A DNA stretch of 62,547 nucleotides, the filler included. It is 6 parts of 6 records of this genome, joined end to end, with 100 filler letters (N's around TTAATTAATTAA, not from the genome) between each part and the next. Parts side by side here need not be neighbours in the genome. Positions count along the whole stretch, not along the records: positions 11,597 to 27,080 come from SRR22947725_1445; 5 more parts are not named here. One strand, written 5' to 3'. Within the stretch, counting starts at the first letter, position 1. Every line of letters begins with the position of its first letter. Position numbers and translations under genes: made by a program. Shown here in pieces: positions 11,497 to 18,154 of the stretch. The notes under the pieces were generated by a model. It was not told where the DNA came from, searched no databases, and worked only from the letters and a program-made list of their open reading frames with translations.

Positions 11497-11596
11497 NNNN
11501 NNNNNNNNNNNNNNNNNNNNNNNNNNNNNNNNNNNNNNNNTTAATTAATTAANNNNNNNNNNNNNNNNNNNNNNNNNNNNNNNNNNNNNNNNNNNN
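11497..11596. other. Artificial contig spacer 1 (N44-TTAATTAATTAA-N44)
   Basis: Linker with stops in all frames flanked by Ns; taxon changes across it. Confidence 0.97.
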
Positions 11597-11625
11597 TGGG
11601 GGTTCGACTCCCTCCATCCCTACCA
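11597..11625 (+). tRNA. 3' fragment of a tRNA (T-arm, acceptor strand, CCA); isotype not determinable
   Basis: GGGGG-TTCGACT-CCCTC T-arm followed by CATCCCT-A-CCA; truncated by the contig edge. Confidence 0.8.
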
Positions 11626-11640
11626 TGTATACTATTTACA

Positions 11641-12267
11641 ATGAAAAAAATAGCTATATTTGGAAAAAAAGGCTCAATAGCAAAATTTGATATTACATCA
11701 AACAATGCTATTTGGATCGGAAAACTTGAGGATAAATACACCCCCAGTTCTATAGCACAAATAAATGATTATTTATTGGTTTACAGCAATACATCATTTA
11801 CAGGCAAAGGTATGATTCATTGTTTTTTGGAGGATAATGGAAAACTTTTATGGTCATATGAAACTAAGGATATTTGTAATGCATCGCATCCCTTTGCTCC
11901 GTTAATGCTTGATAACTATTTATACTATATGCCGTCTTCAAAAGAAGTTGCGAAACTTTCACTTAACAATGGCGAACTAATGTTTCGCAAAAATTTTGAA
12001 AAATCTATGTTTAAGGCTTATGGTTTAATGATTATATCTGATAGTGTTTTTCTAATTTCAAAAAAAGACGCTCTTAAAGTGAATAAAGAATCTGGTGATG
12101 TAAGCCCCTATCCCAAAATTTCTGAATCCATAAACTTAAAAGAGATTTCAGCTTCATTGGGAAATGGCACATCATACTTGTCATCGATATCATTAGCTTA
12201 TCCTCAATCAGGAGATTCAGGCATGATGATGACTGGTGGCGGAGATGCTGGTGGCGGAGGAGAATAG
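11641..12267 (+). CDS. Hypothetical protein with PQQ-like beta-propeller repeats and a Gly-rich tail
   Basis: DNGKLLWSY, NNGELMFRK, KESGDV blade-like repeats; C-terminal GGGDAGGGGE. Confidence 0.65.
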   Translation: MKKIAIFGKKGSIAKFDITSNNAIWIGKLEDKYTPSSIAQINDYLLVYSNTSFTGKGMIHCFLEDNGKLLWSYETKDICNASHPFAPLMLDNYLYYMPSSKEVAKLSLNNGELMFRKNFEKSMFKAYGLMIISDSVFLISKKDALKVNKESGDVSPYPKISESINLKEISASLGNGTSYLSSISLAYPQSGDSGMMMTGGGDAGGGGE

Positions 12268-12287
12268 TTTTCATGTCAGCTCACAAG

Positions 12288-12315
12288 TTTACAAAATTAA
12301 ATTTATATATATACT
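12288..12315 (+). promoter_or_regulatory. Putative sigma70 promoter of the arg operon
   Basis: TTTACA (12288-12293), 16-nt spacer, TATACT (12310-12315). Confidence 0.55.
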
Positions 12316-12323
12316 TAGCACCG

Positions 12324-12368
12324 ATGAATAACTATTTAACACAAGAAAGACGGGCTTCAGCTATATAG
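12324..12368 (+). CDS. Putative arg operon leader peptide MNNYLTQERRASAI
   Basis: 14-codon ORF with tandem Arg codons AGA CGG, overlapping alternative hairpins upstream of a terminator. Confidence 0.7.
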   Translation: MNNYLTQERRASAI

Positions 12369-12418
12369 CTGGATCTTTCCTATTGTGAATTAGACCCAGC
12401 TTTTGCTGGGTTTTTTTT
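12340..12418 (+). promoter_or_regulatory. Putative transcription attenuator (1:2, 2:3 antiterminator, 3:4 terminator)
   Basis: 12340-12362 pairs with 12367-12387 (with bulges); 12367-12376 pairs with 12392-12401 (9/10); 12393-12400 pairs with 12405-12412, followed by the U tract. Confidence 0.72.
12392..12418 (+). terminator. Intrinsic terminator in the arg leader
   Basis: GACCCAGC-TTTT-GCTGGG then T8 (12411-12418), ending 19 nt before the argF' ATG. Confidence 0.85.
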
Positions 12419-12437
12419 ATTTTAAAGAAAGTGAATT

Positions 12438-13439
12438 ATGAAAAATTTTATATCAACAAAAGATTGGACAAAGAATGAACTTCAAGACATTTTAGATTAT
12501 GCAAAAGATCTTAAAGTTAACAAGTTTCAAAATACATTAAAAAATAAATCAGTTGCATTATTGTTTTTTAATCCTTCTATGAGAACAAGGACAAGTTTTG
12601 AGCTAGGTATTCAAGAGTTAGGCGGATATGCTGTTGTTCTTCATCCAGGAAAAGACGCCTGGCCAATAGAATTCAAGCCAAATGCCATCATGGACGAGGA
12701 TTCAGAAGAACATATTATAGAAGTTGCAAAGGTGCTTTCTGAATATTGTGATTTAATAGCGATTAGAGCATTTCCAAAATTTATAAATCTAGAAGAAGAC
12801 TTAACAGATCATGTAATTAATAGTTTTGCTAAATACGCATCAGTACCTGTTGTTAACATGGAGACTATTACCCATCCTTGCCAAGAATTGGCGCACATAC
12901 TAACAATGCAAGAAAAATTAGGAGATCTAAAAGGTAAAGATTATCTATTAACTTGGACATATCATCCTAAGCCATTAAATACAGCAGTTGCTAATTCATC
13001 ATTAATGATAGCAAGTAAATTTGGTATGAATGTGAAGTTACTTTGTCCAACTGAGGATTATATTTTGCATGAAAGCTATATTAATCAAGCTCAGCATAAT
13101 TGTGATCAAAATAACACAAGTTTTGAGATTACCCATGATATTGATTACGGGTATGCAAATGCCAATATTGTTTATGCAAAAAGCTGGGGTTCTCTAAAAT
13201 ATTATGGCAAACCAGAAGAGGAAAAAATTATTAGAGATAAATTTAAGCATTTTATTGTTGATAAAAGAAAAATGGATATGACTAATAATGCTTTGTTTAG
13301 TCATTGCTTGCCCTTAAGAAGAAATATTAAAGCAACAGATGAGGTTATGGATTCAGATTCTTGTGTTGCCATTCAAGAGGCTGGTAACAGGATTCATGTT
13401 CAAAAATCATTACTAACTAAATTACTAAAGGATAATTAA
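12438..13439 (+). CDS. argF: N-acetylornithine carbamoyltransferase (AOTCase, ArgF')
   Basis: FFNPSMRTRTSF, AWPIEF, EEHI, ETITHPCQELAH, TWTYHPKPLNTAVANS, SHCLPLRRN: Xanthomonas-type AOTCase motifs. Confidence 0.92.
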   Translation: MKNFISTKDWTKNELQDILDYAKDLKVNKFQNTLKNKSVALLFFNPSMRTRTSFELGIQELGGYAVVLHPGKDAWPIEFKPNAIMDEDSEEHIIEVAKVLSEYCDLIAIRAFPKFINLEEDLTDHVINSFAKYASVPVVNMETITHPCQELAHILTMQEKLGDLKGKDYLLTWTYHPKPLNTAVANSSLMIASKFGMNVKLLCPTEDYILHESYINQAQHNCDQNNTSFEITHDIDYGYANANIVYAKSWGSLKYYGKPEEEKIIRDKFKHFIVDKRKMDMTNNALFSHCLPLRRNIKATDEVMDSDSCVAIQEAGNRIHVQKSLLTKLLKDN

Positions 13440-13441
13440 AA

Positions 13442-14632
13442 ATGAAAAAAATTGTTTGTGCATTTTCAGGCGGCTTGGATACAAGTTTTTGTGTCCCATA
13501 CTTAATAGAACAAGGTTTCGAAGTTTATACAATTTTTGTTAATACAGGAGGCACCGCAACTAATGAGGAAAAGAAAATATCAAATAGAGCATTAGAACTT
13601 GGTGCTAAAAAACATTTAAACGTAAATGTTGAACTTAAACTTTGGAATCAAATTATAAAACCTCTTATATGGTCTGGATCAAACTATCAGAATAAGTATC
13701 CTGCGCTTTGCTCTGATAGATACTTAATTGTCTCTGAAGCTATCAAGCTTTGTAAAAAACTGAATACTAAATATATATCTCATGGCTGTACTGGTATGGG
13801 GAATGATCAAGTTAGATTTGATTTATCAATTCAAGCATTTGGAAATTACAAAATAATCACACCTATAAGAGAAATTCAAAATAAAGTTTCTGATGTAAGA
13901 GGCTATGAGAAGAAATATTTAACTGAGAGAGGCTTTAAAGTTTCTTCTTTGCATACTAAATACAGTATTAATGAAAACTTGATGGGTGCTACAGTCTCAG
14001 GTTCAGAGATTGATGATTGGAAAGAACCATCAAAGGAAAGCTATATCTTGTGTAGCACTCCAGATAAATATCCTACTAAAACTAAGAAAATAACTATTGA
14101 GTTTGCAAAAGGCGAAGCTAAAAAAATAGATGGTAAACCCATAAAAGGTGCAGATTTATTAAGAATGTTAAATAAAATTGGTGGCAAGTATGGAATAGGT
14201 AGAGAAATCTTTGCTGGTGACACTATTATAGGAATCAAGGGAAGATTTCTTTTTGAATCTCCTGGAATATCAATATTACAAAAAGCGCATAGAGCTCTAG
14301 AGGAATCTATTTTTACCGATAAACAGAACTTCTTTAAACCAACAGTTGGTAAAAAATGGGTTGAGCTTGTATATGGTGGTTTTTATTTTGATCCACTCGC
14401 TAGAAATCTTGAAACTTTTCTTGAGGATATTCAAAAACCAGTGAGTGGAAAAGTTACAGTATTACTTAGCCCTGGAAGGGCTGACGCTGTCTGTGTTGAC
14501 GCAAAGAAAATTTTAATCAGCAAGGATGCTATCTATGCTCAATCAGCATCATGGGGCGTAGAAGAATCAGCTGGATTTATTAAGCTTTTAGGAAAAAGTA
14601 CTTCTACATGGACAGAAGTTAATAAAAAGTAA
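13442..14632 (+). CDS. argG: Argininosuccinate synthase
   Basis: AFSGGLDTS, HGCTGMGNDQVRF, YSINENL, IGIKGR. Confidence 0.96.
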   Translation: MKKIVCAFSGGLDTSFCVPYLIEQGFEVYTIFVNTGGTATNEEKKISNRALELGAKKHLNVNVELKLWNQIIKPLIWSGSNYQNKYPALCSDRYLIVSEAIKLCKKLNTKYISHGCTGMGNDQVRFDLSIQAFGNYKIITPIREIQNKVSDVRGYEKKYLTERGFKVSSLHTKYSINENLMGATVSGSEIDDWKEPSKESYILCSTPDKYPTKTKKITIEFAKGEAKKIDGKPIKGADLLRMLNKIGGKYGIGREIFAGDTIIGIKGRFLFESPGISILQKAHRALEESIFTDKQNFFKPTVGKKWVELVYGGFYFDPLARNLETFLEDIQKPVSGKVTVLLSPGRADAVCVDAKKILISKDAIYAQSASWGVEESAGFIKLLGKSTSTWTEVNKK

Positions 14633-14633
14633 T

Positions 14634-15941
14634 ATGAACAAAAGTTATAAAAAAGATACTATCTTAAAACTTCTCAGCGGAATGAGTAGTGAGAAGGAAA
14701 TTAGAAAATATTTGAATAGGTTTTCATCTGACGATTATAGATTTGCTGTAATCAAAGTTGGTGGGGCAGTTATTCAAAATGATCTTGATAATCTAGTATC
14801 TTCTTTAGCTTTTTTAAATGAAGTTGGATTAAAGCCAATTATTGTTCACGGAGGAGGACCAAAGTTATCTGAAGAGCTTAAAAGAAAAAATATTTCATTC
14901 TCTTTTAAAGATGGGCAAAGGGTTACATCAAAAGAAGTTCTAGATATTGCCTTCAAAGTATTTAGCGGTGAGAACAAAAAAATTATATCTGCACTTATTG
15001 ATAACGGTGTTAACGCTATTCCAGTTATTGGAAATTTATTTAAATGCAATATTGATAATAAAGAGCTTGGTTTTGTAGGAGAGATAAAAGAAATAAACTC
15101 TGATGAAATAAAAGAAATTATTAACTCTGGAGGAATTCCAGTCGTAGCACCAGTAGGACATACAGAGGATAAACAACTAGTAAATATAAATGGTGATAAA
15201 GCCACACTCGCCCTAGCGCAAGAAATCACACCAGATAAAGTAATCTTTCTAAGTGAGATCGGAGGAATTTTTGATGAAACAAATAAGTTGATATCAAATA
15301 TTAATATTAAAGATGATTACGACAGATTAATGAATGAAGATTGGCTTCATTCTGGAATGAAGCTTAAGCTTCAGCAGATAAAGTTGCTTTTAGATATTTT
15401 ACCAAGCCATAGTTCTGTATCAATTACCAAGCCACTTCATCTAAATAGAGAGCTTTTTACTGATGCCGGATTTGGAACATTAGTCAAAGCTGGCCATCAA
15501 ATAGATAAATATCAAAACCTTGATCACGAGCAGGAGACAACAATAACATCAATTCTTGAATCCTCTTTCAAGGGAAAATTGATAAATAGATACTTTGAGA
15601 ATAATAAAAAAGAATTTTATCTTAGCTCATGTAATAGAGCTTCTATAGTGATTTCTCATGATCAAAACATTGCCTATATGGATAAGTTTGCAGTTATTAA
15701 CTCTGCAAGAGGTGAGGGTCTAGGTAATGCAATGTGGAATAAAATGCTATCAGATCACAAGCAAGTTTTCTGGAGATCGAGAACAAATAATGCGATAAAT
15801 AATTTTTATAAAGATGTGTGTGATGGATTTCAAAAATATGATGAATGGAGTATTTTTTGGATAGGAATAAATGATCTTAATAGATTAACTAAGTGTATTG
15901 ATTATGCAGCAAAACAACCTGCAACTATTAATTATGAATAA
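14634..15941 (+). CDS. argB: N-acetylglutamate kinase with C-terminal NAT domain (bifunctional NAGS/K type)
   Basis: VIKVGG, VHGGGP, NINGD in the kinase domain; ELFTDAGFGTL linker; YMDKFAV...RGEGLG...FWRSR..N.INNFY NAT domain. Confidence 0.9.
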   Translation: MNKSYKKDTILKLLSGMSSEKEIRKYLNRFSSDDYRFAVIKVGGAVIQNDLDNLVSSLAFLNEVGLKPIIVHGGGPKLSEELKRKNISFSFKDGQRVTSKEVLDIAFKVFSGENKKIISALIDNGVNAIPVIGNLFKCNIDNKELGFVGEIKEINSDEIKEIINSGGIPVVAPVGHTEDKQLVNINGDKATLALAQEITPDKVIFLSEIGGIFDETNKLISNINIKDDYDRLMNEDWLHSGMKLKLQQIKLLLDILPSHSSVSITKPLHLNRELFTDAGFGTLVKAGHQIDKYQNLDHEQETTITSILESSFKGKLINRYFENNKKEFYLSSCNRASIVISHDQNIAYMDKFAVINSARGEGLGNAMWNKMLSDHKQVFWRSRTNNAINNFYKDVCDGFQKYDEWSIFWIGINDLNRLTKCIDYAAKQPATINYE

Positions 15942-16878
15942 TAAATATAATATTGCTTTGTTAGGTGGCAGAGGTTATGTGGGTCAAGAGATAATTGCCA
16001 TTTTAAATAACCATCCCAACTTTATCTTATCTAAAGTATTTTCTAAAAATGCAGCAGGTGAAAGCATTAAAGAGTATACAAAATTATCAAATTTGGAATA
16101 TAGCTACCTAGATGAACCGGAAATGATTGATCTATCAGATATAGATATTGCAATCATGGCTCTTCCTAATAATAAATCTCATGAGTATGTAAAAAAAATT
16201 GAAGAATACAATTCAAATATGATCATTATTGATTTAAGCGCTGACTATAGATTCAGTGATAATTGGACATACAGCATTCCTGAAATTTGCAAACCAGCAA
16301 AAAAAAATAGAATTAGTAATCCTGGATGCTATGCATCTGCAATCCAGTTTTCTTTATTTCCAATTAAAAATATCATTAGTGGAAAAGTCAGCAGTATGGG
16401 CATTTCAGGATACAGTGGAGCTGGCGCAACTCCTAATGAAAAAAATAATCTAGAGAATTTAAAAGATAATATTATGCCTTATTCTCTTTCGGGGCATCTG
16501 CACGAAGATGAAGTTAGATGGCACTGCTATAATGATCTTGCATTCAGCCCTCACGTTGGAAATTTTTTTAGAGGTATTCTTATCACCTCACATATTAAGC
16601 TGAAGACCAAGCATGCAAATTCTGAAATATATGATATTTATAAAGACTATTATCAGGACTATAAGCTAATAAAAATTAGCAAAGAGATACCAATGATTAA
16701 CAAAATATCAAATAGCCATTTTGTTAATATTGGTGGATTTGATATAGATGAGAGCGGATTAGAATTAGTTGTATGTTGCACCTTGGACAACCTTCTTAAA
16801 GGAGCTGCAACGCAGGCTGTTCAAAATTTAAATTATGCATGTAATTTACAGGAATTAACTGGGATATATTATGAGTAA
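15934..16878 (+). CDS. argC: N-acetyl-gamma-glutamyl-phosphate reductase
   Basis: GGRGYVG, DLSADYR, ISNPGCYA, SGYSGAG, DNLLKGAATQA; ATG 15934 overlaps the argB stop. Confidence 0.95.
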   Translation: MNNKYNIALLGGRGYVGQEIIAILNNHPNFILSKVFSKNAAGESIKEYTKLSNLEYSYLDEPEMIDLSDIDIAIMALPNNKSHEYVKKIEEYNSNMIIIDLSADYRFSDNWTYSIPEICKPAKKNRISNPGCYASAIQFSLFPIKNIISGKVSSMGISGYSGAGATPNEKNNLENLKDNIMPYSLSGHLHEDEVRWHCYNDLAFSPHVGNFFRGILITSHIKLKTKHANSEIYDIYKDYYQDYKLIKISKEIPMINKISNSHFVNIGGFDIDESGLELVVCCTLDNLLKGAATQAVQNLNYACNLQELTGIYYE

Positions 16879-18154
16879 AAAAATATGGAATACAAAAGGT
16901 GTTGAGTCTTCATATGAGATAGCATCATTTCTAGCTGGTGAGGACATTGAGCTAGATAAATCTATCTTTATATATGATATTGATGCAACTATCGCTCACA
17001 TCAAAGGTCTAGCCTCTATAGGCGTTATAAAAAAAAATGAATTAGCTAAATTGATTAAATCGTTAAAAGATTTAAGACTAAAATTCTTAAATAAATCCTT
17101 TAAATTAAATGAGAAATATGAAGACTGCCATTCAGCTATTGAATTTTATTTAACAAAAGAACTTGGAGAGCTTGGTAAAAAAGTTCATACAGGTAGAAGT
17201 AGAAACGATCAAGTTCTTGTGGCAATGAGACTTTTTGCTAAAAAAAATCTAATAGATTTCAAGAAATCTAATAAATCTATTGCAAGGGTTTTGCTGAGAA
17301 TGGCAAAAAAACATGAAAACAATCCAATGCCTGGTTATACCCATCTTCAAAGGGCAATGCCATCCTCATGGGGTCTTTGGTTTGCATCTTATGCTGAGTC
17401 ATTTATTGATAATGTTGATTTAATAAATAGCACTATAGAGTGGATAGATTCAAACCCTCTTGGAAGCGCTGCTGGTTATGGAGTGGCACTACCCTTAGAC
17501 AGAAAGCTGACAACAAAAGAACTAGGATTTAAGAGAACCCAAATAAATACTTTGTATATTCAAAACAGTAGAGGTAAATATGAAATGCAAATAATAAATA
17601 CATTAAAACAGTCAATGCTGGATGTAAGAAAGTTTTCCTGGGATATGAGTTTATTTCTATCTCAAGAATTTGATTTACTCAAAATTGATAAAGCATACCT
17701 AACAGGCTCTTCTATTATGCCTAATAAACATAATCCTGATGTGATAGAAATTCTTAGAGCTAATTATTCCATACTTGCAGGTCAAGCTTCAGAACTTGAG
17801 AACCTTCTTTCACTTCCAAGTGGCTACCAAAGAGATCTTCAATTAACAAAAAGAAGTTTAATATCAAGCTTTGATATCTCCCTTAAATCATTAAATATTC
17901 TTCCAAAATTAATAGATTCCATTAAAGTAAATAAGTCAAAATCGATTGCTTATATTGATGAAGAGATGAAAATGACTGATAAAGTCTATGCTCTTGTTGC
18001 TAAAGGAAAACCTTTTAGAGACGCATATAATTTAATCAAAAATTCTGATGATTTATCAAGCTACGCTCAATCTAATTCAAAAGATTATTCAGAGGGATCG
18101 CCTGGAAATTTAGCCTTAGACAAACTCGACGCAAGGCTTAAAAAGCAAAAATAA
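16871..18154 (+). CDS. argH: Argininosuccinate lyase
   Basis: HTGRSRNDQ, PGYTHLQRA, GSSIMPNKHNPD. Confidence 0.96.
   Translation: MSKKIWNTKGVESSYEIASFLAGEDIELDKSIFIYDIDATIAHIKGLASIGVIKKNELAKLIKSLKDLRLKFLNKSFKLNEKYEDCHSAIEFYLTKELGELGKKVHTGRSRNDQVLVAMRLFAKKNLIDFKKSNKSIARVLLRMAKKHENNPMPGYTHLQRAMPSSWGLWFASYAESFIDNVDLINSTIEWIDSNPLGSAAGYGVALPLDRKLTTKELGFKRTQINTLYIQNSRGKYEMQIINTLKQSMLDVRKFSWDMSLFLSQEFDLLKIDKAYLTGSSIMPNKHNPDVIEILRANYSILAGQASELENLLSLPSGYQRDLQLTKRSLISSFDISLKSLNILPKLIDSIKVNKSKSIAYIDEEMKMTDKVYALVAKGKPFRDAYNLIKNSDDLSSYAQSNSKDYSEGSPGNLALDKLDARLKKQK

Follow-up and report, generated by a model that had tools for sequence, protein, structure and literature searches.

By what means is an arginine-biosynthesis operon kept in step with the arginine supply in a lineage in whose genomes, as far as searched, the usual repressor, ArgR, was not found? 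The question is raised by a DNA window of 62,547 nucleotides (the whole stretch analysed, six parts of one genome joined end to end), in which the interval 12288..12437 directly precedes argF', the gene for N-acetylornithine carbamoyltransferase (AOTCase), and was taken by the original prediction for a leader-peptide transcription attenuator. Leader-peptide attenuators of the classical kind serve trp, his, leu, thr, ilv and phe, arginine being normally under ArgR; to our knowledge, arginine is not among the amino acids of the known attenuators of this kind. The comparisons given below make it likely that the element is a ribosome-mediated leader-peptide transcription attenuator specific for arginine, controlling argF'-argG-argB-argC-argH. 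The proposal that this lineage senses arginyl-tRNA by attenuation thus finds support in comparative evidence from three lineages.

The leader before argF' and its alternative pairings

All parts of the element lie on the plus strand. A promoter-like sequence (12288..12315), with TTTACA as the -35 hexamer (12288-12293), a 16-nt spacer and TATACT as the -10 hexamer (12310-12315), is followed by the open reading frame (ORF) MNNYLTQERRASAI at 12324..12368, which runs for 14 codons from the ATG at 12324 to the TAG at 12366-12368 and sits between the promoter and argF'. Two adjacent Arg codons, AGA (12348-12350) and CGG (12351-12353), form its presumptive regulatory site (12348..12353). Segment 1 (12340..12362), which overlaps these codons, supplies CACAAGAAAGA and TTCAGCT as the 5' arms of the 1:2 anti-antiterminator, whereas segment 2 (12367..12387; AGCTGGA, TCTTTC and TTGTG) starts within the stop codon and has two possible partners: segment 1 or, via 12367-12376, segment 3. 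Segments 3 and 4 make up an intrinsic terminator (12392..12418) consisting of AGACCCAGC (12392-12400), TTTT, GCTGGGTTT (12405-12413) and a T8 run (12411-12418), i.e., a 9-bp stem with its T8, whose end is separated from the ATG of argF' by 19 nt; bases 12392-12401 double as the 3' strand of the antiterminator.

The unconstrained minimum free energy (MFE) fold of 12318-12425 consists of precisely the 1:2 and 3:4 helices (-30.7 kcal/mol, z = -4.38, with none of 200 shuffles as stable). Taken separately, the 1:2, 2:3 and 3:4 helices have energies of -14.5, -11.8 and -14.8 kcal/mol, respectively; the 1:2 helix (12340-12387) holds the AGA codon within its 5' arm, and the duplex of segments 2 and 3 (12367-12376 with 12392-12401) reaches -12.2 kcal/mol with nine pairs and one mismatch. 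Thus, the promoter-like hexamers, the 14-codon ORF with tandem AGA-CGG, the three mutually exclusive pairings, the antiterminator with nine of ten pairs and the terminator with its T8 are all found where the original prediction had placed them. The promoter call needs separate comment: in this AT-rich DNA, the region has no excess of promoter-like matches (41 against an expectation of 55.8), and hence the call rests on the conservation of the sequence in relatives.

The sensor codons are an unequal pair. Across 53 ORFs of the window (18,532 codons), CGG is the rarest sense codon, with 19 occurrences and 3.0% of the Arg codons—a count that bears out the rarity originally judged by eye—and AGA accounts for 51.9% of Arg codons, more than any other; a 14-codon ORF of random sequence would contain a tandem Arg with a probability of about 1.4%. 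A complete 1.30-Mb chromosome of the marine group SAR86 (G002), whose ArgF' is 83% identical to that of the window and whose leader is MINTNTRLRRVPAI, codes for 33 tRNAs (loci L167-L198), including four tRNA-Arg with the anticodons UCU, CCU, ACG and UCG. As there is no tRNA-Arg(CCG) among these 33 tRNA genes, and hence no Watson-Crick reader, CGG must be read there by wobble, presumably by tRNA-Arg(UCG). Together, AGA and CGG would sample two different isoacceptors.

No Shine-Dalgarno sequence precedes the leader ATG of the window, which lies 8 nt past the -10 hexamer. Of 25 SAR86-type loci, 24 show a distance of 7-10 nt, and in 18 it is exactly 8 nt, so that the transcription start can be inferred to coincide with the ATG or to lie no more than about 2 nt from it; translation of the SAR86 leader is thus probably leaderless or nearly so.

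Conservation in SAR86 and in other lineages

Among the relatives of the window is a contig from a SAR86 metagenome-assembled genome (MAG; locus L001), whose ArgF' is 99% identical. A genome collection provided 41 argF' loci, of which 39 were usable (L038 is without the start of the gene and L025 has only 92 nt upstream), and a metagenome scan added 80 more, 73 of them with at least 200 nt upstream. SAR86-type leaders are present in 25 of the 39 and 28 of the 73, i.e., at 53 loci besides the window. In all 25 genome loci a short ORF contains Arg codons, TAGCTGG lies at its stop codon and the GACCCAGC terminator follows, and TTTACA-16-TATA[C/A]T is present in 24 (the promoter of L021 differs), or 25 of 26 counting the window; the 28 metagenome loci also keep promoter, ORF, Arg codons and terminator. 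Under a covariance model (R1) based on 20 sequences, each of the 54 SAR86-type sequences scores 47-122 bits, and one strong copy is found per SAR86 genome, always preceding argF'. Weaker matches elsewhere in SAR86 and Kangiella genomes (21-38 bits) were rejected as further leaders, the four inspected being ordinary, often bidirectional terminators of the form AACCCAGC...GCTGGGTT. Ordinary terminators in G001, G002 and G004 often share this stem with the attenuator terminator, so that the likeness of terminators across lineages does not on its own establish that the leaders share a common origin.

The ORF is conserved in a particular manner. Among 36 distinct SAR86-type leader ORFs, 32 are 14 codons long, 33 have tandem Arg and 33 contain CGG, the tandem being mostly AGA CGG, with CGA AGA CGG, AGG AGA and CGG AGA as variants. 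The Arg-Arg reading frame that the original prediction expected in relatives is therefore there, and it is maintained through differing codons. The remainder of the peptide shows no such conservation, in keeping with a role for the codons only; what SAR86 offers for the presumed translation is a conserved frame and length.

A comparable signal comes from the pairings. Over 45 distinct SAR86-type sequences, the terminated form (1:2 plus terminator) is paired in 87.8% of cases and 10 of its 27 pairs change on both sides, all of these within 1:2, with compensatory changes in 8 of the 11 pairs of the two outer 1:2 helices; the terminator stem is invariant or nearly so. The covariation score of 0.144, which none of 500 shuffles reaches (0.102 +/- 0.006) and which stands against 0.03-0.06 for controls with slid partners, supplies the covarying stems foreseen at the outset, and a hand-made alignment of 20 sequences gives the same picture. 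The 2:3 antiterminator is paired in 94.5% of cells, mostly via conservation.

Leaders built to the same design occur in two further lineages. In the order containing Luteimonas, AOTCase is found in 56 of 61 sampled genomes, and 29 of 30 examined loci (L070 being the one without) have a leader ending in ...GMTSRARR(P)...AG before the stop codon, followed by a terminator. The M-T-S-R-A-R-R core comes in 23 distinct nucleotide versions that differ only by synonymous changes at third codon positions, and this purely synonymous variation argues that the frame is translated in the Xanthomonadales. These Xanthomonadales-type leaders (L042-L071) conserve G-M-T-S-R-A-R-R as amino acids, beyond what the Arg codons need; the nascent peptide may contribute to pausing there. 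Kangiella loci, on the other hand, have a longer leader ORF with RRR..R..R or RRRRR, then GGCTGGG, then the terminator AAACCCAGCC...GGCTGGGTTT; no clear -10 is seen near their leader ATG, and a leaderless start is not claimed for them. The metagenome adds eight Kangiella-like leaders with RRRR or RRRRR (L152 assigned by eye) and eight Xanthomonadales-type leaders with RARR or RRRR (L159 by eye).

The position of segment 2 can be followed through all of these. In SAR86 it begins at the stop codon, 12 nt past CGG; in the Xanthomonadales type it finishes at the stop codon; and in Kangiella-type loci it lies 12-29 nt before the stop (12-20 nt in Kangiella), still within the ORF. In every lineage it starts 12-17 nt past the tandem Arg (16-17 nt in those other than SAR86), and in most loci the copy of the terminator 3' arm within segment 2 overlaps or immediately precedes the leader stop. 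With ribosome footprint sizes as generally known, this placement relative to stop and Arg codons fits the trp/his-like geometry originally claimed.

The sequence of the antiterminator strand varies along with that of the terminator. Among 21 distinct non-SAR86 leaders with a CCCAGC terminator arm, CTGGG lies upstream in 20 and CCGGG in none; among 27 CCCGGC terminators, CCGGG lies upstream in 8, CTGGG, which is G-U compatible, in 5, and neither 5-mer in 14, such that CCGGG is seen only with CCCGGC terminators. At L153 the stem is another one, CCTGG/CCAGG, and segment 2 matches it with GCCAGGTT, an 8-nt copy of the 3' arm. The antiterminator strand thus tracks the terminator across lineages, and this is stronger evidence than the SAR86 pairing alone. 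In 46 of 62 loci, the duplex between the region past the Arg codons and the terminator 5' arm beats 200 shuffles (p <= 0.05).

A terminator-type leader was not seen at four SAR92/Porticoccaceae loci (L027, L030-L032), two of Wenzhouxiangella (L035, L036) and L024, nor at 29 metagenome loci, i.e., 23 with a second leader type described below and L118, L123, L140, L143, L145 and L148. In a class-wide sample of 400 gammaproteobacterial genomes, no more than 10 have AOTCase; in the six AOTCase genomes new to this sample argF' is preceded by an aminotransferase gene, so that a leader, if any, would lie elsewhere in them.

Proposed mechanism and rival explanations

As an arginine attenuator the element would work in the following manner. 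Transcription would start about 7-9 nt after TATACT, placing the leader AUG at or within 1-2 nt of the 5' end. Were arginyl-tRNA plentiful, the ribosome would reach the UAG (12366) and its footprint would cover segment 2 (12367-12376), leaving segments 3 and 4 to form the terminator, with RNA polymerase stopping at the T8; were there no translation at all, 1:2 would form and termination would again ensue. Were arginyl-tRNA scarce, the ribosome would stall with AGA or CGG in its A site and with its leading edge at about 12361-12364, holding segment 1 and leaving segment 2 free to pair with segment 3 as soon as the latter emerges; with 2:3 formed there would be no terminator, and the operon would be transcribed.

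Of the other ways in which the element might be read, the one that survives best, improbable as it is, keeps the ORF translated and replaces the signal: the leader might gauge general translation capacity through a slow CGG, or its nascent peptide might be a sensor of free arginine that works like TnaC, SpeFL or the fungal arginine attenuator peptide (AAP). A codon that is the rarest in the window and is without a Watson-Crick tRNA in a complete relative would indeed be slow whatever the arginine supply, and the longer G-M-T-S-R-A-R-R motif of the Xanthomonadales is conserved as amino acids. Yet the regulated genes are exclusively those of arginine biosynthesis, in place of a rare codon the other lineages have three to five common CGN Arg codons in a row, and conservation of the SAR86 peptides is confined to the Arg pair. 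Stalling by free arginine would, moreover, have the wrong sign, turning biosynthesis on when arginine is abundant.

Somewhat less probable still is that the element is primarily a trans-acting small RNA (sRNA), or a mere insulating terminator after a tRNA or other upstream gene, with the short ORF incidental. The case for an RNA of this kind comes from the Rfam family RF02242, 'Xoo5', which is filed as 'Gene; sRNA' and whose model (gathering score 50 bits) matches 4 of 15 scanned loci of the Luteimonas order (L042-L044 and L046, at 54-126 bits), covering in each the leader ORF with its RARR. The namesake, sRNA-Xoo5 of Xanthomonas oryzae, lies between PXO_00354 and PXO_00353, the latter being the gene for N-acetylornithine carbamoyltransferase (Liang et al. 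2011, PMC3039613), and is described there by a 5'-RACE (rapid amplification of cDNA ends) end, a 124-nt clone and Northern bands of about 130 and 100 nt, i.e., as a discrete RNA of about 100-130 nt. In the main text of that paper 'arginine' occurs 0 times, the lone 'attenuation' refers to virulence, and Xoo5 is discussed as an sRNA; the pertinent passages of Schmidtke et al. 2012 (PMC3300014) note only the start site of the Xcv homologue, with no mention in them of attenuation or arginine codons. In L043 the RF02242 model starts 2 nt before the leader ATG, its first position being assumed to equal the reported 5'-RACE end. The case for an insulator is that a tRNA-Leu gene lies just upstream in many SAR86 relatives and that the upstream ORF of the window has no terminator of its own before 12392.

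What stands against both is, to begin with, the promoter, located past the upstream gene and ahead of the terminator, and conserved along with argF' even as the upstream neighbour changes. In the window this neighbour is a 208-aa ORF (11641-12267) with a Gly-rich C-terminus and no family match; in L001, L005 and L014 it is a tRNA-Leu(TAG) gene, and the similarity of the window to these relatives starts right at the -35 hexamer, the DNA upstream being unrelated despite the 99% identity of ArgF' in L001. The element thus travels with argF' and not with the upstream gene, and a terminator that merely ends the upstream gene—the circumstance under which the original prediction would have been given up—is not what is found. 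The frame and length that are kept (14 codons in 32 of 36), the Arg pair that survives changes of codon, the purely synonymous peptide variation in the Xanthomonadales, and the occurrence of the element once per genome and always directly before argF' likewise speak against an incidental ORF. The terminated leader could also act in trans.

The weakest contender, a very improbable one, in which an RNA-binding protein or small ligand reads AAGACGGG and TAGCTGG (as a riboswitch or in a TRAP/PyrR-like manner) and the ORF has no role, draws on the near invariance of these nucleotides in the core SAR86 group beyond the needs of codon identity, but divergent SAR86-type leaders swap the motif (AGG AGA, CGG AGA) and keep the in-frame Arg-Arg, Kangiella and Xanthomonadales leaders are without the motif yet have Arg runs, no Rfam family reaches its gathering score on the leader, and the conservation of TAGCTGG is explained by its pairing with the terminator arm.

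To return to arginine-specific attenuation, a number of points weigh against it in its turn. The first set concerns energetics: at equilibrium the terminator (-14.8 kcal/mol) is more stable than the antiterminator (-11.8), and masking a ribosome over the Arg codons does not remove the terminator from the full-length MFE. By itself, masked-ribosome equilibrium folding, the kind of constrained fold proposed in the original prediction, thus fails to yield the antiterminator. Because the terminator wins at equilibrium even so, the switch must be kinetic, i.e., co-transcriptional, and such a choice between helices is assumed here as it is for the classical attenuators. The second set concerns the comparative signal: the alignment (A4) was fitted to the covariance model, which favours the structure of the model, the middle 1:2 helix is paired in just 71-73% of cells, the antiterminator duplex fails to beat shuffles in 16 of 62 loci, mostly GC-rich ones, and tandem Arg is missing from 3 of the 36 SAR86 leaders (CGG stands alone in two, and the third reads R-I-R). 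The third set concerns expression. Translation of the leader depends on the inferred start site and on leaderless initiation with no Shine-Dalgarno sequence; the transcript ends, expression and arginine response in SAR86 are predictions only; and the 3' end of Xoo5 (124 nt) precedes the terminator in L043, where the predicted terminated RNA would be about 155-160 nt long, above the reported bands. The stretch occurs in 14 RNA runs, and the contigs of four of them, from four studies, were compared with it but not used as evidence of transcript ends, which contigs cannot show; they break at 12323-12363, where strains differ, and one 1388-nt contig of a relative (depth 74.6) that ends at 12407, inside the terminator, was likewise set aside.

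Finally, the absence of ArgR fits arginine attenuation without discriminating in its favour. Neither PF02863 nor PF01316 was found in G001-G005 (three SAR86 genomes, a Kangiella and a Luteimonas), and PF02863 was not found in five further AOTCase genomes, making 0 of 10 in total; the positive controls gave matches in 8 and 9 of the 14 named genomes used, and the MAGs among the searched genomes may be incomplete. The search for argR suggested in the original prediction, run on relatives that include the one with 99% ArgF' identity (G001), thus came back empty. The presence or absence of ArgR was nonetheless rejected as a correlate of the leader, for it is missing also in five AOTCase genomes that lack this leader.

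Genomic setting, known systems and implications

The predicted regulated operon (12438..18154, plus strand) consists solely of genes for arginine biosynthesis: argF' at 12438-13439 (NF003384, 527 bits), argG at 13442-14632, a long argB of 435 aa at 14634-15941 (acetylglutamate kinase, NF003387), argC at 15898-16878 and argH at 16871-18154, the NCBIfam matches across it being NF003384, NF003385, NF003387, TIGR01850 and TIGR00838. The long ArgB also matches models of amino-acid N-acetyltransferases, more weakly than NF003387; argC and argB overlap by 44 nt, and argD, argE and argJ are absent from 12438-18154. ARAGORN finds no complete tRNA gene in the whole window, and Rfam gives only a tRNA gene on the minus strand at 1-72 (63.6 bits), truncated by the window start.

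A second type of leader, with no terminator before argF', is seen in L024 (2790-3003 of a SAR86-cluster MAG with 70% identical ArgF') and at 23 metagenome loci (L117, L119, L121, L122, L124-L129, L131-L133, L135-L139, L141, L142, L144, L146 and L147), in about 215 nt upstream of argF'. Most have an ORF of 37-61 codons that starts 9 nt after TGCATACTT, with endings such as ...KLRSL, ...R(L/I/F)RS(L/V) or ...RRRRRSI before the stop codon; in L119 and L146 at least, this Arg-ending ORF resembles the C-terminal end of the upstream gene. The spacer to the argF' ATG, 32-38 nt long and 35 in most, contains a small hairpin, in which CACC/GGUG and UACC/GGUA are compensatory changes, as well as a stem, UUCAU/AUGAA, that spans the argF' AUG; the folds are no more stable than shuffles. 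This type 2 leader, found in a sister SAR86 group, may sense arginine, acting either on translation or through Rho.

The element parallels the classical attenuators (Rfam Trp_leader, His_leader, Leu_leader) in its short ORF, where codons for the amino acid that the pathway makes stand in tandem, in its exclusive 1:2, 2:3 and 3:4 pairings, in a terminator before the first gene and in a stop codon that lets the ribosome mask segment 2. The SAR86 form differs in its specificity for arginine, the missing Shine-Dalgarno sequence, probable leaderless translation and lack of membership in any Rfam sequence family: none reaches its gathering score on the window leader, SorY (31.7 bits against 111) and Leu_leader (22.1 against 50) being terminator-driven. 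Repression by ArgR at ARG boxes achieves the same feedback control of arg genes by arginine but does so with a protein repressor acting on DNA. RF02242 likewise lies directly upstream of an N-acetylornithine carbamoyltransferase gene and represents the design in Xanthomonas; it differs in being filed as an sRNA, and its model gives no match in the window, either within 11500-13500 at E <= 10 or over the whole length at the gathering score.

The Cys-rich leaderless upstream ORFs of mycobacteria share with the SAR86 leader a start codon at or within 1-2 nt of the 5' end. The same holds for the leaderless leader peptides proposed for attenuation in Deinococcus deserti (de Groot et al. 2014, PMC4007540), both cases belonging to other phyla; the main text of that paper names cysS, trpEGD, tyrS and thrS and mentions 'arginine' 0 times, and among the passages returned from its supplement file 2 there is no leader-peptide entry beside argG or argS. 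At the RNA level, control for arginine is ascribed to T-boxes in a passage of a 2005 survey (PMC1262725); the Arg-specific T-box leaders of Firmicutes likewise read out tRNA-Arg charging at a terminator, but bind uncharged tRNA directly with no translation required, and the window leader has no T-box match. In the speF leader of Salmonella, orf34 (PMC6386406), Arg codons also couple arginine supply to downstream expression, though the control is of polyamines (ornithine decarboxylase) and not of arginine biosynthesis. The word 'arginine' occurs 0 times in Naville and Gautheret 2010 (PMC2965389). No leader-peptide attenuator of arginine biosynthesis was found in the searches, which covered open-access literature; matches for 'arginine attenuator' concern the fungal AAP. 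Thus, while the mechanism would be a classical one, its arginine specificity, the probable leaderless translation and the wobble-only sensor codon are apparently undescribed.

A wider proposition, whose chances we regard as about even, can be built on these patterns. ArgR-less Gammaproteobacteria—SAR86, the Kangiellaceae and the Xanthomonadales, plant pathogens included—may govern arginine biosynthesis by an unrecognised, arginine-specific class of attenuator on leaderless or nearly leaderless transcripts. The SAR86 sensor would combine one common codon with one rare one (CGG, read only by wobble via tRNA-Arg(UCG)), Xoo5 would be a terminated leader, and the type 2 leader would hint at further arginine sensing of a translational or Rho-dependent kind. 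With an arginine-specific attenuator, classical attenuation would extend to another amino acid, and an Rfam sRNA family would be reassigned to a cis-regulatory role. A leader peptide that is naturally leaderless would be at hand in the Gammaproteobacteria, together with a sensor codon that has no cognate tRNA, and some carriers of the design, e.g., Kangiella, are culturable. Such an attenuator would also explain how feedback control of the arg genes is attained in lineages without ArgR, both in SAR86, which ranks among the most abundant ocean bacterioplankton and has a streamlined 1.3-Mb genome, and in the Xanthomonadales.

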